NCBI GenBank assembly: GCA_964478465.1
Contig: CAYZIG010000001.1
Span: 1-40,794, forward strand
Length of the DNA stretch: 40,794 nt
Source of the DNA: an uncultured Candidatus Saccharibacteria bacterium
GTDB lineage: Bacteria > Patescibacteriota > Minisyncoccia > Phycocordibacterales > CAIZLB01
Reading direction: 5' to 3'
Positions 7,301 through 28,759 of this stretch are shown piece by piece. Below the pieces are notes generated by a model. That model was not told where the DNA came from and made no database searches. It saw only the letters and a list, made by a program, of their open reading frames with translations. The stretch's first letter is position 1, and each line of letters starts with the position of its first letter. The position numbers and the translations under genes are program-made.

Positions 7301-7327
7301 AATAAAAAAAGAGGCTTTTCAGCCTCT
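7301..7327 (-). terminator. Intrinsic terminator of the late (structural) operon
   Basis: On the minus strand the sequence reads AGAGGCT-GAAA-AGCCTCT followed by TTTTTTATT. The stem overlaps the TAG stop of the last tail gene. Confidence 0.75.
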
Positions 7328-8309
7328 ATGGGTAAGCAGTTTGTATTTTTGTAAGTGTTAAAGGTGACACATTTAAAGCAGTTATCACAGCATCATAAGT
7401 ATAAAAATCCGCTAAAGGAAAAGTCTTGTATTTCATTCTATATCTTACTTGCAAATCTGGATTACTAGCAAAATTAGAAGACTTTGTTACAGTTATAGAA
7501 GTATTAATATCATTAATATCGTACATGCTTTTTCCATCTGCTGTGGTTATAGTCCCTGAATTTGTTATTTTTGTTTCAATATAAGTATCATCAATTGTTT
7601 TTAAATCTATCAATTCCCCTGCTGTTATAAGACTTAGTTCTGAAATATTTGAATAAGTCATTGTAAAATTATTATACAATGAAATTTCTAAAACTGCATC
7701 AAATATCGCATCTGCGTTTATATTAATAGTATATACATTTGAGTAAACTGGGTCTATAGCAACACTATCAGTGTATATACTAGCTATCAGATTATAAGGA
7801 ATTTGAACTATCCCGGCATCAATTGGTATTCTAAGTTGGGTTTCTGCGAATGTTTTCATATCTATAAGAATATTTTCAATATTTTTCATTCGTCTATAGA
7901 AATCTACTTCGTTATAGGTCAATTTATCCAGTAATATTTGGTCTATGCTATCCCCTACATTAAAATTTCTGCTGTAGATGGTATTTAAATCTGAATATAC
8001 ATTCGGAAAAACACTTTGAAAAGAAGTTAAAGGAATCATTTCATTTAAAAAAGCGTATTCGAATATATCATGTTCATATGCTAATATTCGAGCGTGTAAG
8101 GCTTCCTGTTGCGTTCTTATAGTGTTGAAGGCTTGATATCCCAATTCCTCACCTGTATCAATATTAGATAGTGTACCATGGTCTGAATTATCAATCATAA
8201 GAGTTGTAAAGTTTTGTGTATCGCTTACCGCTTCCCTGAGTGTATATCTTAATCTATGTTTATCGGTATCAATTATTTTATTTGTTATCTGCATAATTTT
8301 ACCTTGCAT
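7326..8309 (-). CDS. Distal tail / tail-tip structural protein (unassigned family)
   Basis: 327-aa ORF, the second gene after the tape measure and the last gene before the terminator. No recognisable motif. Confidence 0.45.
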   Translation of the reverse strand: MQGKIMQITNKIIDTDKHRLRYTLREAVSDTQNFTTLMIDNSDHGTLSNIDTGEELGYQAFNTIRTQQEALHARILAYEHDIFEYAFLNEMIPLTSFQSVFPNVYSDLNTIYSRNFNVGDSIDQILLDKLTYNEVDFYRRMKNIENILIDMKTFAETQLRIPIDAGIVQIPYNLIASIYTDSVAIDPVYSNVYTININADAIFDAVLEISLYNNFTMTYSNISELSLITAGELIDLKTIDDTYIETKITNSGTITTADGKSMYDINDINTSITVTKSSNFASNPDLQVRYRMKYKTFPLADFYTYDAVITALNVSPLTLTKIQTAYP

Positions 8310-8310
8310 T

Positions 8311-9825
8311 TTATACCCCCTGATCTGTCAAAAAATTATCAATTAAAGTTTCATTGCTTGATACACTATAATTTACAGCTTTGAAAAAATCAGCTTTTAC
8401 AACTGCATCAACTTTTAATACTTTTGTTGCTTCAAAATATCCCGTCAAAGAATCTTCTAGTTCATGAGTATAATTACCCCATGTGCTCGTATCAAGTACA
8501 CAATTTGCAGACAAAACAGGATTTATATCATCCCTATACCCTGCTAATGAACCCTCCCAGTTTATTAATTTTGAAATATTAACATAAGCCCATCCCCCGA
8601 CTTGAAATAAATCGTTTGTAGAATAAAAAGCATCTATTTCAAGTGTAATTGAAGGATTTGCAAATTTAGCAAAATGAATATCTGACATTGTTTTTATGAA
8701 ACTTTCTCTAGCTGTTTGTCTGCTTCCTGAGTAATCATTCATGCCTTCAAAAGTTATTTCCTGAGCTTTAAGCGGTGACAATCCGTATTTTTTAATTGAA
8801 TCATCATTAGTATAGTAATATAACTCAGTTCCGTTCATAGCTTTGATTATAATATGATTTTGTATCTCTGTAAGTATGATTTTCTTAGAATTAACGCTTA
8901 TAACATTTGTATCATCAAGAGTTATGTCGGGATTTATAATACTTTTTTCCTCTATTTCATCAAAACTCATAGTTGAGGAATCAAAAGTTCCACCTACAAA
9001 ACTAGCCCATGTTTTAGCCGGTACTGTAATTAATAATTCGGTTGTCAGCGGATTTCTATTTAGTTTAGAATATAGTTTTCCATCTGTTTTTACATATGAA
9101 AAAATATTACATGGCATCAAAACATTTTTTTGTATCCAGTCACGCGGATTTTGCAAAGCCTCCGTAAATTCATAATAAAAAACCACTCCATCAAGATGAG
9201 GATAATTGGCAATATCCCAAGAAGTGTTGGAACCGTCCCAATCAAGATATTCTTTCCAGTCTTTACCTTCCAATAGTTGAAAAACTCCTTTTACAAAGTC
9301 AATTGGAGAACCTTGAAATATTATAGTGTCATAAGGGTCTGGTCTTGAAAACCCTGTTAATGTCGGAAAAGTTATTGAAGATTGTGCAACTCCGTTTATT
9401 TTGAAAAGATAGTTTTGAAAAACTGTTTGTTTTGCAAGCTCTTGAACGTCTCCTATGTCAAAATTATACCAAGTTTCATAAGCGTCATGGGTAACATTTC
9501 TCAAATATCCTGCATAAATTAAAGTTCCTACACCATCAATGTAGGCATATATATCAACTTTATTCTTATAAATATTTTTCGTAACACCTCCGACATTCAA
9601 AACTTGTAAACTTTCATATATCCAACTAGATACTGTTTCATTAAGATTTTGTACTTTCACTTGGATATTTGATACCGCTGTCGTACATCTTGTAGTATCT
9701 AACTGCATCGAATGATTTTGCGGAAGTTCCATAATATCCAGTGTAGAAAAATCCTTTATCGGGTCGGTATATATTCGCATCTTATAATAAATTTCTTTTT
9801 CTGAGGTTGTATTTTTAATCTTCAT
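8311..9825 (-). CDS. Distal tail protein candidate (Dit-position)
   Basis: 504-aa ORF overlapping the tape-measure stop by 11 nt. The call rests on position only. Confidence 0.5.
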   Translation of the reverse strand: MKIKNTTSEKEIYYKMRIYTDPIKDFSTLDIMELPQNHSMQLDTTRCTTAVSNIQVKVQNLNETVSSWIYESLQVLNVGGVTKNIYKNKVDIYAYIDGVGTLIYAGYLRNVTHDAYETWYNFDIGDVQELAKQTVFQNYLFKINGVAQSSITFPTLTGFSRPDPYDTIIFQGSPIDFVKGVFQLLEGKDWKEYLDWDGSNTSWDIANYPHLDGVVFYYEFTEALQNPRDWIQKNVLMPCNIFSYVKTDGKLYSKLNRNPLTTELLITVPAKTWASFVGGTFDSSTMSFDEIEEKSIINPDITLDDTNVISVNSKKIILTEIQNHIIIKAMNGTELYYYTNDDSIKKYGLSPLKAQEITFEGMNDYSGSRQTARESFIKTMSDIHFAKFANPSITLEIDAFYSTNDLFQVGGWAYVNISKLINWEGSLAGYRDDINPVLSANCVLDTSTWGNYTHELEDSLTGYFEATKVLKVDAVVKADFFKAVNYSVSSNETLIDNFLTDQGV

Positions 9826-12800
9826 AGACTATCTTCCTCGCTTCCACAGTATATCCGTCATCTGACAATTGCATCAACTCAGGCATTAATAATTTTGCTA
9901 CATCATTTGACTTAATATCAACTTTAACAACTTTTACATTTTCTTTCTTTTCAGTTTCTTTTGTATATTCGTCTTTTGGTGGCGTGTAAGGGGTCATGGT
10001 TGAGATTTTTTCATATCCTGCTGTCTTTGTTTCATCTATACTTATCGAACGTCCTACACCGCCCAGAGCAACCGCAACGGCGGTATTTTGTGCAACTGAT
10101 GCCAAGTCATTTGGAATTAACGCCCATGTTGCGGGATTAGTAGCATGAAACGCCGCGTCCCCTGCACTTATCAAAGCTTTCATTCCTGCTTTTTGTGCTT
10201 CTTGAAATGCAAATTCTTGTAACATCTTCTTTCCTGATTCAATTATCTGGTCATATCCTATTGCCTGACCTTTAATACTTTTGTTCATTAAGTCTTCTGC
10301 TGTTTTATCTACTTTTTCTTTTAAATTTAAATATGAATTTTCAAGATTAACTTTTGATAAATAAAACTTTTTATCATTTTCAAGCTGTTCAAGCTTAATT
10401 CTTTTCTCATTTTCAGTATAATCTTTTAGTTTTTTAAGTTTATCATCTTTTATGTCTGGTTTTTCTACTTTCTGTGTAACCATTTCTTCGTTATATTGTG
10501 CAATTTCTTCTTTTGTTTTTGGTTCTTCGTTTGTAGTTTCTTTCAATCCTATCAATGCAAGTGTTTTTCTGTTATAATCAGCTCTATGATAATCAATCCA
10601 ACTATCAAAATCATCATCAAACTTTTGCTTTAATGCTTTTCTTTCTTCGTCTGATTGAGTATTTAAAAGATTTTTCTTGTATTCCGTTAATAAATCTGAT
10701 TCTGCTAATAATAAAGCTGTTTCGTATTCAAATTTATATTCTAATTCTTGTCTTTTAAAATATTCTTTTTCTTTTGATAAATCAAAATTGTATTGTATCT
10801 CTTTATCTTTTAATTTTTTATCAATATCAAGTATTTCTTTTGAGGTTTTTTCAATGTCTAAAGCACGTTTTTTTAAGTTTTCTTCGTCATTTTTCTTTTT
10901 ATCTTCTAAAAGTTTTTTTTCTGCTTTTTCAGCCTCTTTTGCAATCTTTTCTTTTGCGTCCGTTTCTTCTTTAGCATTTTTTTTATCTGCTTCAATCTTT
11001 AATTTTGACATATTAGCATCTTGAATTATTCTTTTCTTTTCTGTTTCTAGTTTTTCCGATTCTATTTCAATATCTTTTATTAATTTATCAGCTCTTATTT
11101 TTTTACTAGCATCAGTTTCATTTTTTATTATAATCTCAGCATCTATTTTTTTTAATTGTTCTATTTTTTTTAAAGTCTTTTTTTCCTCTTCATATATCAA
11201 TACTTGTGTTTCATAATTTTTTTCTGCAACTTGCCACCCAAATTTATCAATTAATCCAAGTTTTGCTTTTTGTATTTCTAAAGCAAAATCATTTTCAGCC
11301 TCTTTTAAATCTGAATTTGATTTTTTAATCATCTCTATTTCTTGTTTATTATATGAAACATCAGGTTTTTTAGGTTCTATAGGAATTTCAACTTTTTTTT
11401 CTTCAAATACATCAGCATACATTCTGTTATATTTTTCTTTTATCTCATTTATTTCTGCTTTTATTTCAATTTCCTTACCACCAATTTTTTTTATTTCTGC
11501 CTCACCTGTACCAAGCATACCACGTTGTCTATCCCATTCCAACAATGTTTTATAGGTTTCTTCTGCATCACGTTTAATTATATCTGCTCTTGACCTCAAA
11601 TTTTTTGTTGTTATTTCAATTTGTTTTTCGCCTTTTTTTTCTAATAAGTTATTTTCTTCTATAATACTATCTTCTGCCATTTTCATTATTTTTTCATTAT
11701 ATCTAAATTGCAAAAGTTCGTTTATTTCTAAAAGTTTTTTATATGCATCATCAGGTGTTTCAAATTTTGTGACATCGACGCTTATTTTGCTTTCTTTTAA
11801 TTTTTCTGCATTTATTCTCATTCTAGCTTCTAGTTGTAAATTTTCTCTTTCTAATCTATCTTTTTTCTCAAGTTCGTCTTTTTCTCTTTTATAAACCTTG
11901 TTAATTTCTTCCTGTGCCATTTCCATTACTAATTTTTTCTTTAAAGCTTCTCTTGCTCCCTCAATTGCTGTTTTTACATCGTTCCATTTAGTTTTCTCGC
12001 TGTCTATATTTTTGAAGTGTTCTGGATATAATTCTTTCATAGTTTTTATAGCATCACCGTATAATTCTTGTTCTTTTTTAGTTTTATGAAGTTTTACTCC
12101 TAACTCTTCTATAGTTATAGCAACTGATTCAAAGCTAACCCGGCTTTCTTCTGCTTTATCAATTTGAGGGATAAAAGATTTTACAAAATCAGCAATAGCC
12201 ATTCTTCCAGCATCCAAAGCAGGTTGAAATTTAGAACCTAAAAACTCAGTATAATCAGTCCATGCATTTTTCATTAAATCTTCTGCATCTACTTGCAATT
12301 CTGCGTGTCCTTTGTATGCTAGTTCTATCTCGTCGAGTATGATAGACTGTGCTCCTAGTACATTATTCGTTTCCATCATTGTTTGAATAGTTTTTTTCTG
12401 CTGTTCTGAGAAATGGAACCCGCTTTTTGATAATGCCCCCATCCCGCTTATCGGATCTTGTAAGGCTTTTCCAATTTGCATTGCAGAACTTGAAAGGTCG
12501 GTTTTCATTACAGCAGACATATCAAGCATGGCTTGCGTTGCTCTTGGCATAACCTCTTCACTCATTCCGTTAAAAGTTAATAGCATTTTGTCCGCTTCTA
12601 TGATTGCTTGGTCTGTATAATTTGTATTTTGTGACAATGCTTTAGCGTTTAATTGGAGTTTTTCAGAGAAAGCATCGGTATAAATACCCATATTTTTCAT
12701 TTGTAAATTCATTCCATCGACTGCGTCCGCCTGTTCGTCCGAAGCGTCTCTCCATGATGTTATAATATCAATTCCCGACTTTATAACATCAAAAAATTTT

Positions 12801-13036
12801 GTCGCTGCTTCTGTAATCTGATTAAATCCGAACCCTGCTATTGATAAACTTGTGAACCCTTCTTTTATCTTATCGAAAAAGCCTTTTTGTTTCTCTGCGT
12901 GTTCTCCAATACTTTCATTCATTTCCTCAGTAGTATCAATAACACGCCTTGCCCCATCTTCAAAATCTTCAGTGTTAAAACTTATTCGGCTTTCTACGTC
13001 ATTGTCATTTTCTTCATCTCTTGCTATTGTTCTCAC
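9815..13036 (-). CDS. Tail tape measure protein
   Basis: 1073 aa with a GTG start. The N-terminal core SSAMQIGKALQDPISGMGALSKSGFHFSEQQKKTIQTMMETNNVLGAQSIILDEIE matches the TP901-type tape-measure core pattern. A very long K/E-rich coiled coil follows. Confidence 0.85.
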   Translation of the reverse strand: MRTIARDEENDNDVESRISFNTEDFEDGARRVIDTTEEMNESIGEHAEKQKGFFDKIKEGFTSLSIAGFGFNQITEAATKFFDVIKSGIDIITSWRDASDEQADAVDGMNLQMKNMGIYTDAFSEKLQLNAKALSQNTNYTDQAIIEADKMLLTFNGMSEEVMPRATQAMLDMSAVMKTDLSSSAMQIGKALQDPISGMGALSKSGFHFSEQQKKTIQTMMETNNVLGAQSIILDEIELAYKGHAELQVDAEDLMKNAWTDYTEFLGSKFQPALDAGRMAIADFVKSFIPQIDKAEESRVSFESVAITIEELGVKLHKTKKEQELYGDAIKTMKELYPEHFKNIDSEKTKWNDVKTAIEGAREALKKKLVMEMAQEEINKVYKREKDELEKKDRLERENLQLEARMRINAEKLKESKISVDVTKFETPDDAYKKLLEINELLQFRYNEKIMKMAEDSIIEENNLLEKKGEKQIEITTKNLRSRADIIKRDAEETYKTLLEWDRQRGMLGTGEAEIKKIGGKEIEIKAEINEIKEKYNRMYADVFEEKKVEIPIEPKKPDVSYNKQEIEMIKKSNSDLKEAENDFALEIQKAKLGLIDKFGWQVAEKNYETQVLIYEEEKKTLKKIEQLKKIDAEIIIKNETDASKKIRADKLIKDIEIESEKLETEKKRIIQDANMSKLKIEADKKNAKEETDAKEKIAKEAEKAEKKLLEDKKKNDEENLKKRALDIEKTSKEILDIDKKLKDKEIQYNFDLSKEKEYFKRQELEYKFEYETALLLAESDLLTEYKKNLLNTQSDEERKALKQKFDDDFDSWIDYHRADYNRKTLALIGLKETTNEEPKTKEEIAQYNEEMVTQKVEKPDIKDDKLKKLKDYTENEKRIKLEQLENDKKFYLSKVNLENSYLNLKEKVDKTAEDLMNKSIKGQAIGYDQIIESGKKMLQEFAFQEAQKAGMKALISAGDAAFHATNPATWALIPNDLASVAQNTAVAVALGGVGRSISIDETKTAGYEKISTMTPYTPPKDEYTKETEKKENVKVVKVDIKSNDVAKLLMPELMQLSDDGYTVEARKIVYED

Positions 13037-13057
13037 CTACCTTTTCAAACTTATAAT

Positions 13058-13091
13058 CCTTACAAAATAAAAATACTAATAATTTGTAAGG
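13058..13091 (-). promoter_or_regulatory. Stem-loop between the hydrolase gene and the tape measure
   Basis: The 9-bp stem CCTTACAAA / TTTGTAAGG has a 16-nt loop and no U-tract on either strand. Confidence 0.3.
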
Positions 13092-13169
13092 TATGCAATA
13101 TTGATTATGAATACATTTTGAACAGTCAGGAAGTATATCAATATTTATATACGTTTTCATATCCATTTT

Positions 13170-14297
13170 CTATACCTCCCTAGTTTTTAAAATAACCTCA
13201 ATATCAAATAATCCGTTTTGTAGTTTTTTTGGTCTTACTTCATTATATTCAAAATCACAATATACCTCATTACCTATACTTTCCCCACCTTCGTAATCAT
13301 AGAAAAATAGTTTTGAAATATTTATTTTAGTTCCTGAGTTAGTTTTAAAATAATTCATTACTGTTAATTTTTCCGCTATTGATAGAGCTTGTATTTTTAA
13401 GTTATAAATATATTTTTTATGAAGTTCTAAAGTTTCAATAGTATAATTTAATGATATATTTTTAAACTCTTCTGATTCTCTGCCGTTTGTTAATATTCCA
13501 AAAAATTTATATCTTGTGGCCGGTGAAAAAGAAATTCCGAATAACCCTATTTGATATAATCTTCTTTGAATTGATTGCATTATTCTAACTGTACCACTGC
13601 TTAAATCATCCCAAATATTCGGAGTATAATCATGTGTAATGTACACTAAACCCGTTGTGAATACAAAACTGTCTATATTTGCATCAGTAATACTATTAAA
13701 ATCAGCATTATAAAACAAAGCTCCTCTTGTTCCTTTTTCATAGTTTTGATAATGTGTATAGCCTGTTGCAATTCCTCCTAACTGTGATAAATTAATAGTA
13801 GAATAATCACCTTCTGCTACTATCAAAGTATCTGCGAACCCTTTCCAGAACATATAATCTGTACACGCTGTACCGGGATTACCTACAACATAATCAAAAC
13901 CGATTGATTTCGCATAAGCTGTGTATCCTGAGTATAAATCACCAAAATTACTTGTATCTAGTATTTCATTTTCTACCCACGATACCTCGTCCATGAAAAT
14001 TCCATCAACTTCAGAATAGTAATTTCTCCATGTGTCCATCTCGATTTCAACCGCTGAAGGAGAACGCACACCGTAATTTGTTGCAACGTAACCTAAGATA
14101 AAAGCTCCTGCCTCTTTTAAACTTGCTATTCCTGCTGTATAGTTTGCATCTATTGAACCCCCTACACCGCTATTAGGATTCACTATTATAAAAGTTGGTA
14201 CTTTATATGTCAATATATATTCTTCTAATATAGCCCATCCCGAACTTGTGGGATAACTATATAACGGTATTATGATCCCACTTTTTGGCAATTCCAT
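13170..14297 (-). CDS. Spherulin-4-like (GH135/Sph3-type) glycoside hydrolase with unknown C-terminal domain
   Basis: IIIPLYSYPTSSGWAILEEYILTYKVPTFIIVNPNSGVGGSIDANYTAGIASLKEAGAFILGYVATNYGVRSPSAVEIEMDTWRNYYSEVDGIFMDEVS follows the Spherulin-4 pattern (PLY.YP...W, vNPnnGpG, lGYV.T.Y, vDGiF.DE). The family is recalled, not searched. Confidence 0.65.
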   Translation of the reverse strand: MELPKSGIIIPLYSYPTSSGWAILEEYILTYKVPTFIIVNPNSGVGGSIDANYTAGIASLKEAGAFILGYVATNYGVRSPSAVEIEMDTWRNYYSEVDGIFMDEVSWVENEILDTSNFGDLYSGYTAYAKSIGFDYVVGNPGTACTDYMFWKGFADTLIVAEGDYSTINLSQLGGIATGYTHYQNYEKGTRGALFYNADFNSITDANIDSFVFTTGLVYITHDYTPNIWDDLSSGTVRIMQSIQRRLYQIGLFGISFSPATRYKFFGILTNGRESEEFKNISLNYTIETLELHKKYIYNLKIQALSIAEKLTVMNYFKTNSGTKINISKLFFYDYEGGESIGNEVYCDFEYNEVRPKKLQNGLFDIEVILKTREV

Positions 14298-14302
14298 TTA
14301 TA

Positions 14303-14620
14303 TCACGCTCCCATCATTCTCCTCAATTCGTTAATCTGATTAATCTGTCTTTTTTTCTTATCCTCGTCCGTTGATGTGTCAATCTCAGTTATAACTTTTT
14401 TTAATAATGCTTTCTTTTCTGTATATATTTCACTATAATTTTCTTTGCTTTCAGTTTCTAACCAGAGATGATTCTCTGCAATTTCTAACAGTCTTAAGTC
14501 TTCCTGAGCTTGGACTATTGAAATTTTAGAGTACATATCAAGGAAAATTATACTCTTCATCTTCATTACTTCGTCAAATTTATAATTATAATATTTACAG
14601 AATTGACTTATCATGTACAT
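14303..14620 (-). CDS. Tail assembly chaperone, T-like part (also expressed as a GT fusion)
   Basis: The frame stays open upstream of its ATG back to the A10 tract, in the -1 frame relative to the preceding ORF. It lies downstream of the tail-tube genes. Confidence 0.6.
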   Translation of the reverse strand: MYMISQFCKYYNYKFDEVMKMKSIIFLDMYSKISIVQAQEDLRLLEIAENHLWLETESKENYSEIYTEKKALLKKVITEIDTSTDEDKKKRQINQINELRRMMGA

Positions 14621-14658
14621 TACATCTATGTCATAATCTGTCTTATCGTCCGAGTTAT

Positions 14659-14946
14659 TTAGTTTTTTTTTTCGTTTTTACCTAGCATTATTTCGGTAAG
14701 TATTTTTATAAGTTCGTTTAATTGTGATAATGTTAGTTTGTCAGGATTTATTCTTTTATATATCTTTGATTTTACCGCACATTTTTTTAATAACCATTTT
14801 GCTAGTGTTAAACTGTCTCTAAATTGTCCTTTCTGTAATTTGTTCATATATTCGTAATAATCCGATACAGTAGGATTTTTTATTTTATACTTTTCACCGT
14901 TAAATTGTATTTGGTTTTCTTCCAATATGTCAAGATTGTATAACAT
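14659..14946 (-). CDS. Tail assembly chaperone, G-like
   Basis: 95-aa ORF directly after the tail-tube genes. It ends GAA AAA AAA AAC TAA, which contains a slippery run. Confidence 0.65.
   Translation of the reverse strand: MLYNLDILEENQIQFNGEKYKIKNPTVSDYYEYMNKLQKGQFRDSLTLAKWLLKKCAVKSKIYKRINPDKLTLSQLNELIKILTEIMLGKNEKKN
14663..14672 (-). promoter_or_regulatory. Programmed -1 ribosomal frameshift site (A10)
   Basis: The minus strand reads CG-AAAAAAAAAA-CT, three codons before the G stop. After a -1 shift the reading frame runs without stops (KLNNSDDKTDYDIDV) into the 105-aa ORF. This is the conserved G/GT arrangement. Confidence 0.6.
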
Positions 14947-14992: not shown

Positions 14993-15967
14993 CTAGTATT
15001 TTTTTCTTAAACTTATATTATCTATAGTACCGGTCCAAGTCGTACTTGATAAAATCATAGTTATACCATCTGCGAACTCGTCCGCTGTGAAATAAATTAA
15101 ATGTGATGCTAAACCTAATTTATTTAAATTCAATTTGTAACTTGTTGCAGTATTTGCGTAAATACTTAACCATTCGGGAACACCACTACCCATTGTTGCG
15201 GTTGTATTTGTTTCAAAATATAAAGCATATACCTCCCCAGTTGTAATAGTTTCTAAATATGTCGGGCTTAGATATATTTGACTTCCTAAACCTTCACCAA
15301 TAGGGTCTACCTGTGATATTTTTTCAGAAACAAGTGTAAATCCACTTATACTCCAGTTTGGAGTCCCAGATAAATTTCTATCAACTAAGTTTGTGATCAT
15401 TTCATCGCCAAATAATCCAAATTTTATTTTATCGCCGTTATTGTCATATTCTGCATTTATTTCTAATATAACACTCGCATTTTCTCCGTTAGTTCCCTTT
15501 TTTTCAAACTTTTTATCTATACAACATCTTAGAATAACAATGTCGTAAGATGTGTTATTTGCAGGAAGTTCAGAAGGATGAAGTCTTAAAATAAATTCAT
15601 TTAAAATATTTCCTACGACATTTCTAGCTGTTGAAATATCCCCTATTCCTGTTTCGTCATTTTCTACTGTTATACCTTCAAAATTTTTTATACCTGTTAC
15701 CCATTCATCAAGTTTTGCTATGGTAAAATCACTTAATTCTAGTTTTAATTTAGTTTCATTTATATCATGCAAAAATTTTATTGGTTCATTTCCACTTTCA
15801 AGGATTGTAACGCCTTTTAATTTTTCCGACCAATTAAATTCTGGTACTGATTTCTGAGAACCTAACAATGTCCACGCCTCATGTGTAAGAGGCACAACAC
15901 TATTATTATAAGGTGCAATATAAGGTTTAAATGTTCCTACATATTTACTTTTCATTATCCACCCCAC
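14993..15967 (-). CDS. Tail-tube paralog 3 with ~140-aa C-terminal extension
   Basis: Shares PYIAPY, LGSQKSVPEFNWSEK, LSDFTIAKLDEWVTGIKNFEG, ILRLHPSE and DKKFEKKGTNGE with the two upstream ORFs. It lies immediately upstream of the chaperones. Confidence 0.55.
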   Translation of the reverse strand: MGWIMKSKYVGTFKPYIAPYNNSVVPLTHEAWTLLGSQKSVPEFNWSEKLKGVTILESGNEPIKFLHDINETKLKLELSDFTIAKLDEWVTGIKNFEGITVENDETGIGDISTARNVVGNILNEFILRLHPSELPANNTSYDIVILRCCIDKKFEKKGTNGENASVILEINAEYDNNGDKIKFGLFGDEMITNLVDRNLSGTPNWSISGFTLVSEKISQVDPIGEGLGSQIYLSPTYLETITTGEVYALYFETNTTATMGSGVPEWLSIYANTATSYKLNLNKLGLASHLIYFTADEFADGITMILSSTTWTGTIDNISLRKKY

Positions 15968-16545
15968 CCAATAATTAATTTTTGGTCTAAACTGTCAGAC
16001 ATTCCTAAAACTTCAAATTCTAAAACCGCTTGTTCTCCTATAATGCCTTTTTTATCAAATTTTTTATTTATTACTGCGTGAGTAATTATAATATCTTGGT
16101 CGTATAATGCCCCACGTTCGACAGGGTGCAATCTTATTATACACTCCGCTATATTTATCCCGATTTTATTTGTAATCGTTCCTATGGTATTTTCATCAAC
16201 ATTATAGCCCTGTAAGTTGCATATTTCAGCCAGTTCATCGAATGTAGGAGCATTTTGAAACTGACCCATCGCGTCAAAGCTTACAGCGAGCCTAAATCCT
16301 TGTAATTTTGTTAAATCTAAGTCTACAAGAAATAATTTTGCCATGAGAGGATGTTCCGAACATACAGCCCCATCAATTCCATCTTCTATCGTTTTAACTT
16401 CTGCGTTTTTTTCTGAATAATTAAATTCAACGCCTGTTTTCTGATTTCCTAAAGCTACCCATAGGTCATGGTCTGTAGGTATAAATCCATCGTCGTATAA
16501 AGCTATGTAAAGTTGAAAAATACTTGGATATAATGGTGTTCCCAT
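15955..16545 (-). CDS. Tail-tube paralog 2
   Basis: LGNQKTGVEFNYSEK, IIRLHPVE and NKKFDKKGIIGEQA align with paralogs 1 and 3. Confidence 0.55.
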   Translation of the reverse strand: MGTPLYPSIFQLYIALYDDGFIPTDHDLWVALGNQKTGVEFNYSEKNAEVKTIEDGIDGAVCSEHPLMAKLFLVDLDLTKLQGFRLAVSFDAMGQFQNAPTFDELAEICNLQGYNVDENTIGTITNKIGINIAECIIRLHPVERGALYDQDIIITHAVINKKFDKKGIIGEQAVLEFEVLGMSDSLDQKLIIGWGG

Positions 16546-16557
16546 TTGTTACCTCCC

Positions 16558-17100
16558 TTAAGCGGTAACCGCTCCAAATACGACTTTTCTCGGAGTTGCT
16601 GAATCATTCCACATTGCCATACAATCCCAAACAACAGCGGCTTGGTCTCCGTATGTTCCTTTCTTTTCAAAAGACTTATTCGCTACTATTCTACATAAGA
16701 TTATATCGTTTGAATAGTCTGTTCCCATTTCTGCCGGGTGAAGTCTCAATATGTACTCGCTTGCAATCTGTCCAACTTTATTTGTAACTGTCAAAACACT
16801 TGCAGCGTATGCAGCTCCATCAAAATTTGATATTCCTGCCGACCATTCATCCAACTTTGCTACTGTTATATCCGATAATGTTAATTTGCAAGTTGCGGAT
16901 TGACTTTCCATTATTGCTTTCACTGCTTCATTACCACTTTCCACCGTTTTTACACCTGCATACTTTTCAGAATAGTTAAACTCTGCAACCGCTTTTTGTG
17001 AACCTAAAGCCGTCCATCCGCTTAGATTTGCACATGTAGGTATCACTCCATCAGTTGTGTAAGGTGCAATGTACGGTATAAAATTACCTAACATTAACAT
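16558..17100 (-). CDS. Tail-tube paralog 1 (major tail protein candidate)
   Basis: PYIAPY, LGSQKAVAEFNYSEK, LSDITVAKLDEWSAGISNFDG, ILRLHPAE and NKSFEKKGTYGDQA. It is the first of three tandem homologs. Confidence 0.55.
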   Translation of the reverse strand: MLMLGNFIPYIAPYTTDGVIPTCANLSGWTALGSQKAVAEFNYSEKYAGVKTVESGNEAVKAIMESQSATCKLTLSDITVAKLDEWSAGISNFDGAAYAASVLTVTNKVGQIASEYILRLHPAEMGTDYSNDIILCRIVANKSFEKKGTYGDQAAVVWDCMAMWNDSATPRKVVFGAVTA

Positions 17101-20128: not shown

Positions 20129-21085
20129 TTATTTTACCCCCTGTCTTTTTTTTATAGAATCCATAGTGTTTTTTATAATTTCCTCTGTTTTTTGGATTTC
20201 TGTTTTTTCTTTATTATCTTTTTTACCTTCGAACTCTTCAGTAAGATATTTAAAGTCTTTCATCTTCTCAATCTTTGAAACAATTCTTTCAAATCTTGTT
20301 TGTTTTACTCCTGCTTCAAATTCTTGTATTTCCGTTTCTTCAACTGCTTTTGTAAGAGCATACTCTAAAATCTCAGGTAGTTCACCGACCAATTTTGTCT
20401 TCTGCTCTTTCATAACTGCATCAACTTTTGATTTCTTTGCATCCGCTTCATACTGTTGTATAACTTTATCCTTTGCTGCTAAGTCGTCAATAACTTTCTG
20501 CTGTTCTGGTGTAATTTTTTCTTCGAACTCTCCATAAACTACATTTCTCATCTGTTTCTTTTGATCCGCTGTTACGCTTTGTGCTATTGCTTGCATTAAC
20601 TCAAGTTTATTTTCAAGCGTTAATCCTAGCATAGCTTGTTTTATTTCTTCAATTGTCACTATGTTCCCTCCCTCTTTTATTATTTCATATTCCAGTATTG
20701 TATTATATGCGTTCTTTTCTTCAAACTCGGTCCCTACACATGCAGAGGCAACACCAAGTGGCAAAACACATATATTTATCAAACTATTATTTAACCCATC
20801 TATTTCTGCCGATATTCCTTTAAAAACTCCATCCGATTCATACATTAAACCCTTTTCATTCAATGAAAGCTCTGCAAACACTTCACCGTTTTTTATTTCA
20901 AAGTTTTCCCATTTCCCGATATGGATAGGTTCTTTATTTTCTTTGTCCCAGTGTGAAGTATGAATATATTGTGCATCCGCCTCAGTAACATTTCCAAAGA
21001 TGGTATTTACTTGTGAATCTGTCATATCTTTTCTTGAATCGTTTTTAGACATTTTCTTTGAAAAAACTTTTAATTTTTTACCCAT
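20129..21085 (-). CDS. Head maturation protease / scaffold (Mu gpI-like)
   Basis: It is the first gene behind its own promoter. A globular N-terminal part is followed by a long K/E coiled-coil C-terminus typical of scaffolds. It lies just upstream of the decoration and capsid genes. Confidence 0.5.
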   Translation of the reverse strand: MGKKLKVFSKKMSKNDSRKDMTDSQVNTIFGNVTEADAQYIHTSHWDKENKEPIHIGKWENFEIKNGEVFAELSLNEKGLMYESDGVFKGISAEIDGLNNSLINICVLPLGVASACVGTEFEEKNAYNTILEYEIIKEGGNIVTIEEIKQAMLGLTLENKLELMQAIAQSVTADQKKQMRNVVYGEFEEKITPEQQKVIDDLAAKDKVIQQYEADAKKSKVDAVMKEQKTKLVGELPEILEYALTKAVEETEIQEFEAGVKQTRFERIVSKIEKMKDFKYLTEEFEGKKDNKEKTEIQKTEEIIKNTMDSIKKRQGVK

Positions 21086-21200: not shown

Positions 21201-21683
21201 TTATTTAGGATTATATTCTACATCTTTTATTATAACTTTTTCATTATAAAAACCCTCGTGTCTTGCCATCGCTTTACACAATTTTAAGTAATCAACCTCA
21301 AATTTTGGTACAAATTTACGCCCTAAACCTGAGTATTCCTCGATAGCTTTAATATAATCCTCTACATTATTTTCAATTGATGGAGCGTATTTGTTTACTA
21401 TTTCTTCTATTGTTTTGTCTTTATAATGTTTTGAGTTACAAAGTAATTTTTTCATGCAGTTGAAGCCTTCTTCTTCGGTTGCAAAGACTGCGAAACGATT
21501 ATCTTTACCCGCTCTTCCGATTGCTCCAAAAGTTTTTGTGAAATTTCCGTATTCGATATTACCCGGATTATTATTCCTTTTTGCACAAATTCCCTTAACC
21601 GTTATAGCCTTCTTTTCTTCATCATCAAAAAAAATAGTTGTCATACTGCCTTTTTCTCCAAAATGTTCTGCTCTATTCCACAT
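21201..21683 (-). CDS. Candidate endolysin / muralytic protein (NNPGNI-motif family)
   Basis: Carries RNNNPGNIEYG...FAVFATEEEGF...TIEEIVNKYAP. I only vaguely recall this motif family from phage lytic/structural annotations. It lies directly downstream of an XhlA-like membrane protein. Confidence 0.4.
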   Translation of the reverse strand: MWNRAEHFGEKGSMTTIFFDDEEKKAITVKGICAKRNNNPGNIEYGNFTKTFGAIGRAGKDNRFAVFATEEEGFNCMKKLLCNSKHYKDKTIEEIVNKYAPSIENNVEDYIKAIEEYSGLGRKFVPKFEVDYLKLCKAMARHEGFYNEKVIIKDVEYNPK

Positions 21684-21687
21684 TTTA

Positions 21688-21987
21688 TCACTTCCCTTCT
21701 AAAACAGTTTTGATTGCTAATGTTGTTAATGCTCCTACAATCAACAATATTACTGTTTTTGTTATTTCTTTATTGAGCTTTGCAGGTTCTTTGTTCTTTT
21801 CATCAATCTCTTTTTCAATCTTTTTCAATATCTCGAACATGTCATTCATTTTTTGAGAACTTAAGAGAAATTGTTCTCTTAAGTCCCCAAATTTTTCTTT
21901 GAAGTTCTTGAACTCTGTTTCGAGTTCTGAAATTTTATTTTTCAGAAATTCAATTGTTTCTATTTTTTTACATTCGTGTTCTTCCAT
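21688..21987 (-). CDS. XhlA-like lysis-associated membrane protein
   Basis: 99 aa with an N-terminal coiled coil and a single C-terminal TM helix (TVILLIVGALTTLAIKTVL). This is the architecture of PBSX XhlA-type proteins. Confidence 0.5.
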   Translation of the reverse strand: MEEHECKKIETIEFLKNKISELETEFKNFKEKFGDLREQFLLSSQKMNDMFEILKKIEKEIDEKNKEPAKLNKEITKTVILLIVGALTTLAIKTVLEGK

Positions 21988-22607
21988 TATCTATATGTTA
22001 TCTCTACATGATATACGTGGTTATCTATTGCGTTTGTTCCGTCATAATTTCCAACATAGATTTTATTTTCACCTTGATACATAAAACAAGTTAATATTTT
22101 AGAGTTATTTTCATTAAGCCCTATTCCCGCAGAACTTCGAACAGGATTAATTGGAGGTGTTATAGTTAAACTACCCGTTGCGGTTCCTTTATCTGTTATG
22201 GTTATAACTATAGAAAGGTTAATAATATTTCCTACTTTTGTATAATATCCTGTCGCAGAATAAGAAGTTATAGTCCCTGTTCCTGCTGTAACTATAGGAT
22301 TATATGATGTTTCCTCATAATCGTCAAATACATTTATTCCTACATCATCAGATTGACTTGCAGGAAAAGATATTCCCGAACACGTTAAAATACTTGTTGT
22401 TCCTAGTTTTGGAACTTTTAAAGCTTCTCCACTTGTTGTTACTCCGCTTGTCGTTGTTCCAAAACCTAACGCCTCAAAATTTCCTTGTAGGTACGGTCTT
22501 GCCCCTGATACCGTATCTGTTCCGCTGTCAAATCCTGCCGTTCCTACCACTGCAAAACTCATTGTTGATATTAACACTAATATCAATCCTAACATTAATT
22601 TTTTCAT
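21987..22607 (-). CDS. Secreted protein of unknown function
   Basis: The N-terminal signal-peptide-like MKKLMLGLILVLISTMSFAVVG is followed by Gly/Thr/Ser-rich beta-type sequence. Confidence 0.5.
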   Translation of the reverse strand: MKKLMLGLILVLISTMSFAVVGTAGFDSGTDTVSGARPYLQGNFEALGFGTTTSGVTTSGEALKVPKLGTTSILTCSGISFPASQSDDVGINVFDDYEETSYNPIVTAGTGTITSYSATGYYTKVGNIINLSIVITITDKGTATGSLTITPPINPVRSSAGIGLNENNSKILTCFMYQGENKIYVGNYDGTNAIDNHVYHVEITYR

Positions 22608-22620
22608 TTCTGCACTCTCC

Positions 22621-23109
22621 CTATTTTAATTTTATTGAAATAATTGTGCTCAAGTTTGTTGGTGTGAACACAAAGTTTAAATCTATATCACTGCAAATAT
22701 TTTTATTGTAAAACAGTAAAGGCATTACCAAAATATTGTTATTAATTAGAATATTTTTTGTATAATATTCATTAGTTCCAAAGTATATATAATTATCATA
22801 TCCCGAAAACGCCCCTATTCCATAACTTAAATTATCACTTATTTTATTTGTATAAACTATTCCTAAACTGTCTTTTGAATTACTATTATTCATTGTCATT
22901 ATAGTTATATTTTCAAACTTTAATCCTAAAATATAATTGTTGTTATTAACTAATGTATTATTTCCATAGTGTCTTGTGTCGATACCTATAAGCAATTCCG
23001 TTGCATTGCTTTCAATTGCAAAGACGGTGCTTAATATAACTATTATAATCCATGTCATTAACCTCATAATACACCGCCTTTTATTTTTATATGTCGTCCA
23101 TTGATCCAA
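22621..23109 (-). CDS. Small signal-peptide protein with beta-barrel-like alternating pattern (probable start ATG 23067)
   Basis: MRLMTWIIIVILSTVFAIESNA is followed by amphipathic strands (YILGLKFENITIMTM, SLGIVYTNKIS, LSYGIGAFSGY, DIDLNFVFTP). The ATG at 23067 follows AAAGGCGGTG and removes the overlap with the previous ORF. Confidence 0.35.
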   Translation of the reverse strand: MDQWTTYKNKRRCIMRLMTWIIIVILSTVFAIESNATELLIGIDTRHYGNNTLVNNNNYILGLKFENITIMTMNNSNSKDSLGIVYTNKISDNLSYGIGAFSGYDNYIYFGTNEYYTKNILINNNILVMPLLFYNKNICSDIDLNFVFTPTNLSTIISIKLK

Positions 23110-23425
23110 TATATTTTTCTTGTGCTTTCAAAAGTTTATATACTTCATCCATAAAAACTGATTCCACAAAAACTTTTTTATTTTCATTAGTTTTTATTTC
23201 AAAAGTTTTATCATTTAAATAAAATATATTTTCAAAACATTCAGTATTAAAGTCTTTTCTTTCAAGTTCGATTGTCTGAATGTCTAACGGATATTCGCCA
23301 TTTAATCTACTTTCTTTGTTTGCATAACTTTCTACTGTCATTCTAAGATTATTTTCATTTTCTGAAACATAAAAGAATGAAATTTTGTGATAGTTCGTAT
23401 TTTCTAGTTGTTTTATTATTGCCAT
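23087..23425 (-). CDS. Hypothetical protein downstream of the fibre genes
   Basis: 112-aa ORF with no recognisable motif. Its position is compatible with a fibre chaperone. Confidence 0.4.
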   Translation of the reverse strand: MAIIKQLENTNYHKISFFYVSENENNLRMTVESYANKESRLNGEYPLDIQTIELERKDFNTECFENIFYLNDKTFEIKTNENKKVFVESVFMDEVYKLLKAQEKYIGSMDDI

Positions 23426-23434
23426 TTTTACTCC

Positions 23435-24814
23435 TTATTTATAATAAAAAATATATATTCTATTTGCGGTATATCCGCTTCTATCTGCAACAGTTACGGC
23501 TGTTAAATTTGTACTGTCAATTTGCCATGTAACTTGGTTTGCGGCGGTTGTACTATCAAGCCCGAACGGTACAAATTTAGTCCCGTCGTAAGCTGAACCG
23601 TTCATTCTTACAATTTTTGTTCTGTCAAAATTACTTATACCGTGTGCAACATTTTTTGTCGTGTTGTTTGGTATTGCCCCAAAGTTTATAACTTTACAAA
23701 ACACTCTATTACCATCAATATACTCATTCGTTGCAATTTCTGAACCTATTATGTAATTTACTCCATTAACTTCTGAATCCCAGTCTATAGCCCCTGTTGA
23801 AGTTACTCCGATACAAGTAAATTTACCTTTCATTGAAGGGGTAACTGTTTGAACCAACTCCCCTCCTGAACTATTAACAGTTATAACCGCATTAGTAGTA
23901 TTATTTTTTATTTCCCACATTTGACCTGTTGAAAGTGTTGAAGTTACTGGCAAAAGTATAGTTTGAGTTGTTGTTCCTGTAAAAAATTGGTATCTGTTTG
24001 ATATACTTGTAAGTGTAGTTATAGTCGCTGAACATGTTGTAGTCGTATATCCGTTTGTATTTCTTGAAAATATAGTTCCTCCAACTCTCAAGTCTTTTGC
24101 TATTCCTGCTCCTCCACTTGCAATTATAGAACCATCCGAAATTGTCAAACTCTGTGTTGTGGATGTAGCGGTCAAACTTGGTGAACTTATACCGCCATTC
24201 GCTTTTATTCTTAATTGTTCCGTTATCGTTAAACCATTTACATTTTTAAAAACTAAGTCACTTTTATAGTCGTTAGCTCCTGCACTTATTACGTTTGTAC
24301 CTATTGAGTTAGCAAGTAAATGTGTTCCTGCGTTATCTCTAACATTAAATTCTATTGTATGTTCATCTCCACCGCCCGAAGCATAAAAATTATCAAGTGA
24401 TAAAGCTGTATAAGTTCCAGAAGAGGCAGTATTTATTATAGTTTGTTTACCGCCTAAATATAAATCTTTCTTTATGCCTACTCCACCATCAACTATTAAT
24501 GCCCCTGTAGCAATGCTTATAGACTGTGTAGTAGATAATGTCGATATATCCCCTAAACTTGTTATAACTCCTGTAACTCCTACGCCTGCATTGAGTATTA
24601 ATGCCGAACCCGTCAGACTTAACGCCCCCAAGTATCCTTGCCCTATATAACTTGTATTAGTCGCTATCTGTTGAAGCACATCAGCGGCGTTTACCGCTGA
24701 ACCTGTCGAACTAGTCCATTGATAAAACGCCCCTTTTGTCGTTGTAGTGTTTACCGTTCCCGAAAAACTAAGTATTGAAAGTAACGTAAAAATTAATAAT
24801 AGTGTTTTTTTCAT
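23435..24814 (-). CDS. Fibre-like protein, short paralog, with signal-peptide-like N-terminus
   Basis: MKKTLLLIFTLLSILSFSG, then SAVNAADVLQQIATNTSYI and repeated GALIVDGGVGIKKDLYLGG / ASGGAGIAKDLRVGG motifs. These are shared with the 875-aa protein. Confidence 0.55.
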   Translation of the reverse strand: MKKTLLLIFTLLSILSFSGTVNTTTTKGAFYQWTSSTGSAVNAADVLQQIATNTSYIGQGYLGALSLTGSALILNAGVGVTGVITSLGDISTLSTTQSISIATGALIVDGGVGIKKDLYLGGKQTIINTASSGTYTALSLDNFYASGGGDEHTIEFNVRDNAGTHLLANSIGTNVISAGANDYKSDLVFKNVNGLTITEQLRIKANGGISSPSLTATSTTQSLTISDGSIIASGGAGIAKDLRVGGTIFSRNTNGYTTTTCSATITTLTSISNRYQFFTGTTTQTILLPVTSTLSTGQMWEIKNNTTNAVITVNSSGGELVQTVTPSMKGKFTCIGVTSTGAIDWDSEVNGVNYIIGSEIATNEYIDGNRVFCKVINFGAIPNNTTKNVAHGISNFDRTKIVRMNGSAYDGTKFVPFGLDSTTAANQVTWQIDSTNLTAVTVADRSGYTANRIYIFYYK

Positions 24815-24823
24815 TTGTCCCCC

Positions 24824-27451: not shown

Positions 27452-28317
27452 TATTCCTCCTTTTTAATATTTAACATAAAATCTATTGTTTCTTTTCTTA
27501 TGTCGTCAAGCTCGATATTATTTTTTAAATTTACGTTTATTTCTTCGAATATATCCCCATCCTGCAATACTTTTTTCAGAATGTACGGCGGACTTGTAGA
27601 ATTACTCATCATGAACAATGAAATTAAATCTTTTAGCCAGTCTGAAATACCGCCTTTTTTAACTGAGTATTTATATTTATAATTCCCTGTACCTACTGAA
27701 ATTATTCTTATTTTTTCGTCAGGGAAAAGTTTTTTTGCTTCGATATATGCAGACAAACATAAATCGTTCTGGTCTACTCCTCCATCTACATATCTATTGA
27801 AAAAAATTTCTTTTGGTTCAAAGAAAGTTGGAGCTGAACAACTTGCCTCTACCGCATCCGATAAAGCGGCGTAATTTGTAATCTCTGATTTATAACTTTT
27901 CCAGTATTGTGGAATATCTTCTGTGATATTATACGCTGTTATCATCAACTTTTTTTCGATACAACTTATAGGGATATTCCCGAGTATTTTTCTAAGACTT
28001 TCTCTTAATTGTTCACTTTGATATTTCGGGTTTATCAACCCATTTAGGCTTCTGATATTATACCAAAAATCTTTCTTGAATATTTTCCATATCTCTTCAA
28101 GATAAACTTTCAATATATCCTCTGTCTTCATACTAATTGAATATGCTCCCGCTATAATTGCCCCTGTAGAAACGCCACAAAGCAAGTCAGGAACGATTTT
28201 TTCTTTCTTCTCTAACTCTTTCATCAAGACAAGGCTTATAATCCCTCTAACGCCACCACCCGAAAAACACAGAACTGTTTTCAAATACTCCACCGCCTTT
28301 ATCAAATGATTTTTCAA
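27451..28317 (-). CDS. Patatin-like phospholipase (probable start TTG 28284)
   Basis: FSGGGVRG (oxyanion loop), GVSTGAI (GxSxG nucleophile) and YVDGGV (catalytic Asp) appear in canonical order. No ATG precedes the Gly loop, and the TTG at 28284 follows AAGGCGGTGGAGTAT. The stop overlaps the ATG of the fibre gene. Confidence 0.85.
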   Translation of the reverse strand: MKNHLIKAVEYLKTVLCFSGGGVRGIISLVLMKELEKKEKIVPDLLCGVSTGAIIAGAYSISMKTEDILKVYLEEIWKIFKKDFWYNIRSLNGLINPKYQSEQLRESLRKILGNIPISCIEKKLMITAYNITEDIPQYWKSYKSEITNYAALSDAVEASCSAPTFFEPKEIFFNRYVDGGVDQNDLCLSAYIEAKKLFPDEKIRIISVGTGNYKYKYSVKKGGISDWLKDLISLFMMSNSTSPPYILKKVLQDGDIFEEINVNLKNNIELDDIRKETIDFMLNIKKEE

Positions 28318-28522
28318 ATGAAAGAGTTATGAAAACCCCTTTCGTAGTATTGACATAATCTTTTTTAATAAGTTTATAACCTTCTTTTTCATATTTTTTC
28401 TCATATTCTGAAATATCCATTAATGTTTGAAAGTTATTCCGTTCTCTGAATAGTTCAACTTTTTTTATATCAGAAAATGAAAAAGTAAAAATTAATAGAT
28501 ATATTAATAATATTAATTTCAT
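28247..28522 (-). CDS. Small signal-peptide protein
   Basis: MKLILLIYLLIFTFSFSD leader. The 3' end overlaps the patatin frame by 38-71 nt. Confidence 0.45.
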   Translation of the reverse strand: MKLILLIYLLIFTFSFSDIKKVELFRERNNFQTLMDISEYEKKYEKEGYKLIKKDYVNTTKGVFITLSFEKSFDKGGGVFENSSVFFGWWR

Positions 28523-28758
28523 TATACTAATCCTACTACTATATGATGCTTTGAGCTATTCGGGACTATTATTTTGAAAGCCGAAAAAGTTGTTTGAGTT
28601 GTTATATCTCCAGATAGTCCTGCTTCAATGACTTTATCTATTCCGTTTACTGAAATAGTTATATCTTCGTTGCCTGTGTTTGTCACTTCAATATAATTTC
28701 CTGTATCTTCGTATAACGCCGTGACTAGCTTATTATTATATACTTTCTTCGTTAGCAT
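28522..28758 (-). CDS. Hypothetical small beta-rich protein
   Basis: 78-aa ORF tightly coupled to its neighbours (a 1-nt gap on one side, a 1-nt overlap on the other). Confidence 0.4.
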   Translation of the reverse strand: MLTKKVYNNKLVTALYEDTGNYIEVTNTGNEDITISVNGIDKVIEAGLSGDITTQTTFSAFKIIVPNSSKHHIVVGLV

Positions 28759-28759
28759 T

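Follow-up and report, generated by a model that had tools for sequence, protein, structure and literature searches.

A Spherulin-4/GH135-like hydrolase domain fused to a small tail-operon module upstream of the tape measure gene in a siphophage-like genome

NCBI contig CAYZIG010000001.1 (40,794 bp, analysed over its whole length and referred to below as the window) carries a novel siphophage-like genome in which a gene of 375 codons, located on the minus strand at 13170..14297, lies between the genes for the G/T tail assembly chaperones and the gene for the tape measure protein. Its product joins an N-terminal domain of the Spherulin-4/glycoside hydrolase family 135 (GH135) type to a C-terminal module, here called X, which related phages encode as a protein of its own in the same slot. 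We consider it somewhat better than an even bet that the product of this gene is a polysaccharide hydrolase that arose by domain fusion and is mounted on the tail. X would be a structural tail subunit with a tail-tube-like fold that is built onto the tail and presents any domain or protein fused or docked to it, the displayed element being a GH135-like enzyme in the window phage and in the phage behind contig L002. The fusion protein would be co-produced with the tail proteins, as its start just downstream of the chaperone T open reading frame (ORF) and its lack of a secretion signal suggest; several copies of the enzyme would ride on the virion, and the enzyme would cleave a host surface or matrix polysaccharide at adsorption, so that the tail tip could reach its receptor.

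The N-terminal hydrolase domain

The ORF call with an ATG start agrees with the first-pass annotation of this region, made from the sequence alone, which had given a 375-residue product and a 5-nt gap to the T-like ORF; the T stop codon TGA occupies 14303-14305 and the ATG of the fusion gene 14295-14297, with a GGGAG about 10 nt 5' of the ATG. No promoter or terminator belonging to the fusion gene itself was found within the late tail operon. The protein has no signal peptide and begins directly at strand β1, while a signal peptide is present in the cellular homologues P0003, P0012 and P0014. The sole full-length relative found, P0004, is 49% identical overall and is encoded on a 1-kb metagenome contig, and a tblastn search of the fusion protein against deposited phages returned nothing except Virus Rctr41k.

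The first ~250 residues had been ascribed to the Spherulin-4/GH135 pattern, and profile searches bear this out. The Pfam family Spherulin4 (PF12138) matches residues 8-235 over model positions 2-231 of 239 with 118.5 bits against a cut-off of 30.2 (E 4.3e-34), a score four times the gathering threshold. The sole relatives with solved structures are the Sph3 (GH135) entries 5c5g and 5d6t (E ~3e-14), and the homology with Sph3 spans about 165-230 residues at about 25-35% identity. An AlphaFold model built on a 14-sequence alignment has a mean predicted local distance difference test score (pLDDT) of 80 and places eight alternating strands and helices in residues 7-249, with the core mostly at 80-97. 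A Foldseek search with this barrel model returned triosephosphate isomerase (TIM)-barrel glycosidases as its top matches. The family match and the (β/α)8 fold on which the first-pass annotation had staked its assignment are thus both recovered, the fold as a prediction, the glycoside hydrolase domain (residues 7-249) being encoded by 13551..14279 on the minus strand.

The residues predicted to carry out catalysis are also present. In Sph3 numbering, which equals the residue number in the 5c5g chain plus 50, the putative catalytic residues are Asp-166 and Glu-167 together with Glu-222 (PMC10485009), the last of which is also named elsewhere (PMC12054363). D103 and E104 of the window protein (codons GAC GAG, 13986..13991, minus strand) align with Asp-166 and Glu-167, and E162 (codon GAA, 13812..13814, minus strand), positioned at the end of predicted strand β6, aligns with Glu-222, the acid/base residue. 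D103, E104, E162 and an NPG motif (140-142) are invariant across all homologues aligned. By homology and by the predicted structure, residues 1-249 are a Spherulin-4/GH135-type (β/α)8 barrel with the predicted catalytic acids intact.

The closest characterised counterpart is Sph3 of Aspergillus, a retaining endo-α-1,4-N-acetylgalactosaminidase with which the window domain has in common sequence homology, the predicted (β/α)8 barrel, the Asp-Glu pair, the second Glu and the NPG motif; characterised GH135 members are restricted to Sph3-type fungal enzymes (PMC12054363). By family analogy the window domain would be expected to act as an endo-glycosidase of the retaining type on a polymer rich in hexosamines, and its substrate would be an α-1,4-linked polymer rich in N-acetylgalactosamine (GalNAc) or galactosamine (GalN), of the Pel or GAG type (galactosaminogalactan, for example). 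Because the identity to Sph3 is only about 25-35%, the specificity of Sph3 is not transferable to the window enzyme, whose substrate may differ. The two proteins also differ in their setting: Sph3 is a membrane-anchored fungal enzyme required for galactosaminogalactan biosynthesis, whereas the window protein is phage-encoded, lacks a signal or anchor and carries a C-terminal tail module.

The involvement of Sph3 in synthesis raises the alternative that the window gene serves lysogenic conversion or auxiliary metabolism, with the enzyme remodelling host exopolysaccharide during infection or lysogeny. Sph3 is needed for polysaccharide biosynthesis in Aspergillus (PMC12054363), Atacama viruses carry Spherulin-4 genes that were read as extremotolerance or sporulation genes (PMC8269230), and the window phage carries an integrase. 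The gene, on the other hand, lies within the late tail operon with neither promoter nor terminator to itself and is fused to a tail-operon module. Moreover, with neither a signal peptide nor a membrane anchor the protein has no way of reaching an extracellular polymer from inside a living cell. Of the explanations considered, this is the least likely, and we give it very little credence.

Module X in the tail operons of related phages

Module X corresponds to residues ~250-375 of the fusion protein (13173..13550, minus strand). The first-pass annotation had set aside the ~120 C-terminal residues as an unknown domain, which is still apt in that X has no match in Pfam, PHROGs or NCBIfam; a small family can now be defined for it, however, and its predicted fold resembles that of tail-tube, Dit and neck proteins. 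When 1.84 billion representative proteins were searched exhaustively with HMMER for the C-terminal domain, five matches (P0004-P0008) were obtained. P0004 is a second Spherulin4-X fusion, and P0005, P0006 and P0008 are small stand-alone proteins; P0007 was rejected as spurious, being a eukaryotic repeat protein. Three more members, P0009, P0010 and P0011, came from a profile search. The eight X members have 18 invariant columns.

The X core comprises ~120 residues and the stand-alone X proteins are 120-250 residues long, with attachments that vary. Nothing is found on the N-terminal side of X in P0006, P0008 and P0009, and only a short tail in P0011; P0005 (L004 617-1207) and P0010 (L006 226-972) carry repeats of the 'SQETxLxF' type with a period of ~13-15 residues, and the window protein and P0004 carry the GH135 barrel. 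At the C-terminus, several members also bear a triple 'TWxxxK' repeat, which the window protein lacks. Wider scans for X in IMG/VR, GTDB genomes and JGI metagenomes confirmed no relative, and tblastn with P0008 gave no match, so the family is known from a handful of Logan, ENA and JGI contigs only.

The contigs that bear X share with the window a fused Mu-type portal/MuF gene, a scaffold-like gene and a tube gene, at roughly 30-38% identity. In the window, the order is G, T, the Spherulin-4-X fusion, a 50-codon ORF and the tape measure gene. L003 and L008 have the tube gene, a gene for a G-T-like protein of 221-223 residues, X and a fibre- or spike-like gene, and L005 has a T-like gene, X and a fibre-like gene. 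In L004 a gene for a Kelch/CHB_HEX_C protein is followed by X and the tape measure gene, and in L006 a Kelch/CHB_HEX_C gene is followed by X, a fibre-like gene, a gene for a 115-residue protein, the tape measure gene and a homologue of the gene for the 504-residue protein that follows the tape measure in the window. The long proteins of L004 and L006 are homologous to the window tape measure protein. L007 is a short contig whose X gene is identical to that of L006. The placement of X downstream of G/T or upstream of the tape measure gene was seen where the respective neighbour lies on the contig. The synteny that might be expected in related phages is thus observed, with X recurring beside a T-like chaperone gene (L003, L005, L008) or before the tape measure gene (L004). 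Fusobacterium phage phiFN37, the nearest described phage by portal, has a tube gene, two small genes and the tape measure gene, with no X.

The genes next to X appear to be exchangeable. Those that follow it in L003, L005, L006 and L008 have in common the N-terminal fibre motif M-STxNLELxIPDxxDxADIxxxNxNFxKID, and the three that were scanned (L003, L006 and L008) have matches among the PHROG families for tail fibres or tail proteins, the best being that of L003 (E 7e-48), which also contains a Peptidase_S74 endosialidase-chaperone domain. No gene in the window encodes the N-terminal fibre motif of the relatives. The gene before X in L004 (1-603), L006 (1-213) and L007 (3-227) encodes Kelch repeats with Fn3_assoc/CHB_HEX_C (chitobiase-C) domains, a further glycan-related module in the X cassette.

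Since relatives encode X alone in this slot, the fusion gene represents the fusion of an N-terminal domain onto a resident tail gene and not the arrival of a free insertion. The first-pass description of a gene 'inserted' between the chaperones and the tape measure has to be revised accordingly: the C-terminal ~125 residues are a stand-alone gene of the relatives in the same slot. Judged by the gene orders, the slot between chaperones and tape measure in this lineage is one of a resident X amid exchangeable glycan-recognition genes, and in the window the exchangeable part is fused to the N-terminus of X. It had further been stated that the tape measure gene almost invariably follows G and T directly. 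The gene identities in this region stand, but the rule has a precedent against it in Cluster O mycobacteriophages, in which an HNH gene separates the genes for tail assembly chaperone and tape measure (PMC4351075). The Cluster O insert resembles the window in that the chaperone-to-tape-measure junction can be broken by another gene; it differs in being a mobile endonuclease unrelated to tail function, whereas the slot in the window belongs to a conserved tail-operon family with exchangeable glycan-targeting partners.

The position of X also accommodates a different role, that of an assembly factor for neighbouring tail or fibre proteins, with the hydrolase as a non-virion accessory; in a related version, the barrel would be a non-catalytic glycan-binding receptor domain. 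We regard this pair of possibilities as improbable. The slot between chaperone and tape measure genes would suit an assembly factor, as would the location of X directly before a fibre gene in four relatives. Fibre chaperones such as λ tfa, T4 gp38 and Mu U' are, however, usually encoded after their fibre and not before it, X is retained where no fibre gene follows (the window and L004), and a chaperone with variable N-terminal extensions, consisting of repeats in some cases and an enzyme in others, is hard to explain. A barrel that only binds glycans is made less likely by the conservation of all three catalytic acids of Sph3.

Structural prediction provides the second line of evidence on X. 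An AlphaFold model of X alone has a pLDDT of 79 and a predicted template-modelling score of 0.70 and consists of a long β-hairpin (strands 24-40 and 46-64), a helix (66-78) and then four strands. In a Foldseek search of the PDB, ~44 of the 50 best matches were tail-tube-fold proteins of phages, tailocins, gene transfer agents (GTAs) and contractile injection systems, including the monocin tube, T5 pb9 (Dit), GTA tube and neck proteins, the T1 tip, the Sf11 tail, SPP1 Dit and the NF5 neck. Searching BFVD with the same model gave 13 matches below 1e-3, with E values down to 1e-4; most are small phage proteins without a name, and some carry annotations as major or minor tail proteins, including 'major tail protein TP901-1'. 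The model thus makes a tail-tube-like fold (tube, Dit or neck) likely for X. Several observations weigh against a structural role of this kind. The matches in the PDB are weak (E 4e-3 to 0.1, template-modelling scores 0.3-0.5), though with Foldseek probabilities up to 1.0, and the model was built on an alignment of just eight sequences. A sequence link between X and tube or other PDB proteins was sought and rejected: hhalign of X against the phage's own tube paralogues gave a probability of 0.15%, and a profile search of PDB sequences with X found nothing below E = 1.

A more specific proposal follows from the variety of X attachments, although we hold it only tentatively and think it rather doubtful as a whole. 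X would be an accessory tail ring or adaptor of a new kind, with a tube fold, serving as a plug-in platform for interchangeable glycan-targeting parts, whether β-strand repeats, a fused GH135 domain, a fibre or spike docked to it, or no extension at all. The window phage would then possess the first virion-borne depolymerase of the GH135 endo-galactosaminidase type, directed against a Pel-like or GalNAc-rich host polymer.

Other phage Spherulin-4 proteins and known tail-borne modules

Spherulin-4 domains are found in phages beyond this lineage. In Virus Rctr41k the domain forms the C-terminus of gp46, a 659-residue tail protein encoded after the tape measure gene, and is 33% identical to the window protein. 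In IMG/VR, 35 contigs encode a Spherulin-4-like domain in ORFs of 215-2120 residues with 26-34% identity to the window protein; this set was found with a broader alignment, a scan with narrower patterns having given nothing. Two further proteins were found only through these IMG/VR relatives. Rothia phage Spartoi gp21 (L083 11001-12089) is encoded after the minor tail genes and before lysin A, and a 429-residue protein of Streptococcus phage vB_SthS_VA460 (L084 12001-13290) is encoded between the holin and an amidase lysin. The C-terminal ~90 residues of the Streptococcus-type protein recur in prophages of S. salivarius (Javan534-539). The proteins of Rctr41k, Spartoi, VA460 and the IMG/VR contigs are all annotated as hypothetical, and none has been studied.

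These proteins have a catalytic domain of the same family as the window protein. They differ from it in lacking X and in their gene positions, which are after the tape measure gene in Rctr41k, at the tail-lysis boundary in Spartoi and in the lysis cassette in VA460. Module X was not found in Rctr41k, Spartoi, VA460 or the 35 IMG/VR contigs, where matches end by residue ~243, and the gene position of the window was not seen among them either. The Spherulin-4 genes of the Atacama viruses (PMC8269230) are likewise unstudied and share neither X nor this position. A JGI scan yielded 36 loci with Spherulin-4 only, none of which extends past residue 244 or shares other genes with the window. The earlier remark that a depolymerase at this position is unusual therefore holds for the position, in that other phage Spherulin-4 genes do not have it; the domain family itself, however, is already present in several phages at other places.

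The lysis-associated genes form the basis of the main rival to a tail-mounted hydrolase, namely a free, non-virion enzyme that is made late and is released or acts from inside at lysis, degrading capsule, biofilm matrix or wall polysaccharide, with X as a substrate- or wall-binding domain. Because the VA460 gene lies in the lysis cassette, between holin and amidase lysin, and the Spartoi gene adjoins one, just before lysin A, a free lysis-time role is plausible for the Spherulin-4 domain in general, and this counts against a tail location. The recurrence of the C-terminal part of the Streptococcus-type protein in S. salivarius prophages is what a wall-binding module would show, and the evidence for a tube fold in X is weak. 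For the window gene, however, the context points elsewhere. X stands alone in the tail operons of several phages, packed against chaperone, fibre or tape measure genes, where a lone binding domain would be odd as a conserved gene, and its structural matches are overwhelmingly to tail-tube-fold proteins and not to carbohydrate-binding modules. The window gene itself starts 5 nt after the T ORF and is distant from the candidate lysin gene at 21201-21683. We consider a free enzyme unlikely, if a serious competitor. A tail-associated enzyme, one of the options raised by the first-pass annotation, fits best with the occurrence of X in tail operons, the tube-fold matches and the absence of a signal peptide.

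A tail-mounted hydrolase would resemble the depolymerases of tail spikes and fibres, such as Klebsiella capsule depolymerases and endosialidases, in that a virion-borne enzyme clears polysaccharide and an enzyme is coupled to a particle anchor, as proposed for the window protein. The classical depolymerases are trimeric β-helices with an N-terminal anchor, and their genes lie with those for baseplate and fibres, after the tape measure gene. The window protein is not a tailspike of this kind: it has a predicted TIM barrel and a presumed C-terminal anchor of tube-like fold, and its gene precedes that of the tape measure.

The closest parallel for the role proposed for X is offered by decorated tube-fold proteins. 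These include 'evolved' Dit proteins with carbohydrate-binding insertions, λ gpV and SPP1 gp17.1* with Ig-like C-terminal domains, and the T5 collar with its L-shaped fibres, in all of which a ring-forming tail subunit serves as the platform for a glycan-interacting domain or for fibres. They display binding domains and no enzyme barrel, and are encoded by the tube gene itself or by genes downstream of that for the tape measure. No sequence similarity between X and these proteins is detectable, and the formation of a ring by X is only proposed.

The surrounding genome and implications of the fusion

Upstream of the fusion gene, G (95 residues, 14659..14946, minus strand) lies directly after the tail-tube-like genes, gives a weak match to phrog_893 and has at its 3' end a slippery A10 tract (14663..14672, minus strand) that is likely to be a -1 frameshift site. 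In the zero frame the tract reads GAA AAA AAA AAC TAA and in the -1 frame AAA AAA AAA CTA AAT, with no stop up to the T ORF. The T part of the chaperone spans 14303..14662 (minus strand); the annotated T ORF covers 14303..14620 (105 residues), and the -1 frame is open from 14662, which predicts a G-T fusion of ~212 residues. The window T ORF shares 38-44% identity with the C-terminal halves of the L003 and L008 G-T-like proteins (39-44% for these two) and with the product of the L005 gene upstream of X. The G/T pair has no Pfam or PHROG chaperone family match, and the chaperone assignment therefore rests on architecture. Read from the sequence, the pair is genuine and of the λ-type arrangement, with a -1 frameshift at a slippery sequence. 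In L003 (9316-9987) and L008 (9367-10032) the G-T-like chaperone is encoded by a single ORF of 221-223 codons, in the middle of which are several A-runs, and not by two frameshifted ORFs; a different mode of expression or assembly errors at homopolymers could account for this.

Downstream, the tape measure protein (9815..13036, minus strand; 1073 residues from a GTG start) matches phrog_27166 (E 2.7e-27) and phrog_26084 (E 2.5e-10), and Pfam TMP_2 with 27.7 bits, just under the cut-off of 30.2. This match and the -1 frame at the A10 tract agree with the flanks as first annotated, G/T chaperones on one side and tape measure on the other. The spacer between the fusion gene and the tape measure gene (13037-13169) is 133 bp long and is almost filled by a 50-codon ORF (13014..13166, minus strand) that begins MDMKTYINIDILPDCSKCIHNQYC, has four cysteines and is preceded 8 nt upstream by a GGGAGG Shine-Dalgarno sequence. 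A predicted stem could sequester this Shine-Dalgarno sequence. For the 50-codon ORF, a candidate gene, no family match was convincing; it shares 23 nt with the tape measure gene as annotated from its GTG, and the tape measure start is therefore uncertain. Inside the 50-codon ORF is a hairpin with a 9-bp stem and a 16-nt loop (13058..13091, minus strand), in which CCTTACAAA (13091-13083) pairs with TTTGTAAGG (13066-13058). The gap and its hairpin had both been described in the first-pass annotation and both are real, but the hairpin is not exceptional and the gap is nearly filled by the small ORF. A role for the hairpin as a terminator or regulatory element was rejected: its stem contains three G-C pairs, a T-run is lacking and the terminator scan passed it over; such hairpins are also about as frequent as chance would have them, the window containing 18 perfect 9-bp hairpins against 8.1 +/- 3.8 in Markov-1 simulations.

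The window is a complete NCBI contig with a G+C content of ~31% and all genes on the minus strand. Every window protein checked is a singleton in 90% identity clustering, and a megablast search of deposited phages with the window tail region gave no match. The nearest TerL sequences come from Bacteroidota phages (38-45% identity), the nearest portal from Fusobacterium phage phiFN37 (30%) and the nearest named RecT sequences from Bacillales (55-60%); the contig of the best RecT relative is an unrelated myovirus-type phage. By sequence similarity, the phylum indicated differs between the relatives of TerL, portal and RecT. A low-GC host bacterium that uses Shine-Dalgarno sites is suggested by the strong GGAGG ribosome-binding sites and the 31% G+C content.

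Several features of the head and tail modules were also observed. The portal (Portal_Mu) and the MuF-like minor head protein form a single ORF of 723 codons (29320-31491, minus strand), a fusion also present in L003, L008 and phiFN37. The head module is interrupted by an accessory gene block (21201-29320, minus strand) bordered by a Phage_tail_S-family gene (28760-29320) and the scaffold-like gene (20129-21085), and phiFN37 has a comparable block inserted at the same place. On the minus strand the block encodes a patatin-like phospholipase (27451-28317), a protein with a PagP-like PHROG match (22621-23109) and, as the candidate lysin, a transglycosylase/endolysin-like protein (21201-21683), from which the fusion gene is far removed; it also holds 875- and 459-residue proteins of no assigned function. 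Three tandem tail-tube-like paralogues (14993-17100, minus strand; ORFs 16558..17100, 15955..16545 and 14993..15967) have the YIAPY and LRLHP motifs in common and are 42-48% identical to the first copy; the third has a C-terminal extension of ~140 residues, and in L003 and L008 the tube-like gene is present in a single copy. Downstream of the tape measure gene (7326-9825, minus strand) there are just two sizeable genes, for proteins of 504 and 327 residues, followed by a recombination module of YqaJ, RecT and SSB. A recognisable long fibre or receptor-binding gene cluster was not found at 7326-9825, and the 504- and 327-residue proteins have no family match. The phage has three neck-type genes, the Phage_tail_S-family gene and two small ORFs after the capsid gene, as Mu-like phages likewise have. 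Module X was considered as a missing tail terminator; given the three neck-type genes, no ring is obviously absent.

What is new in the window is an architecture in which a TIM-barrel hydrolase is joined to a tail module that is itself novel and probably of tube fold, and which occupies an accessory slot specific to this lineage, 5' of the tape measure gene. The strategy of a virion-associated depolymerase is already known, and the window represents an unusual variant of it rather than a system of a new kind. Depolymerases carried on virions determine host range and are under development as anti-biofilm and anti-capsule agents. Nearly all those characterised are β-helix tailspikes, so that a GH135-type TIM barrel on another anchor, if confirmed, would widen the range; it would also point to phage enzymes against GalNAc/GalN-rich matrices (Pel, galactosaminogalactan), for which very few hydrolases have been characterised. 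The X anchor of ~120 residues might be reusable for engineered tail display. For annotators, X and its slot provide a new place, 5' of the tape measure gene, in which to seek receptor-binding or depolymerase genes in siphophages, and the 'spherulation-specific' genes of viromes, earlier read in terms of sporulation or stress, are more likely to encode polysaccharide hydrolases of the tail or lysis machinery.

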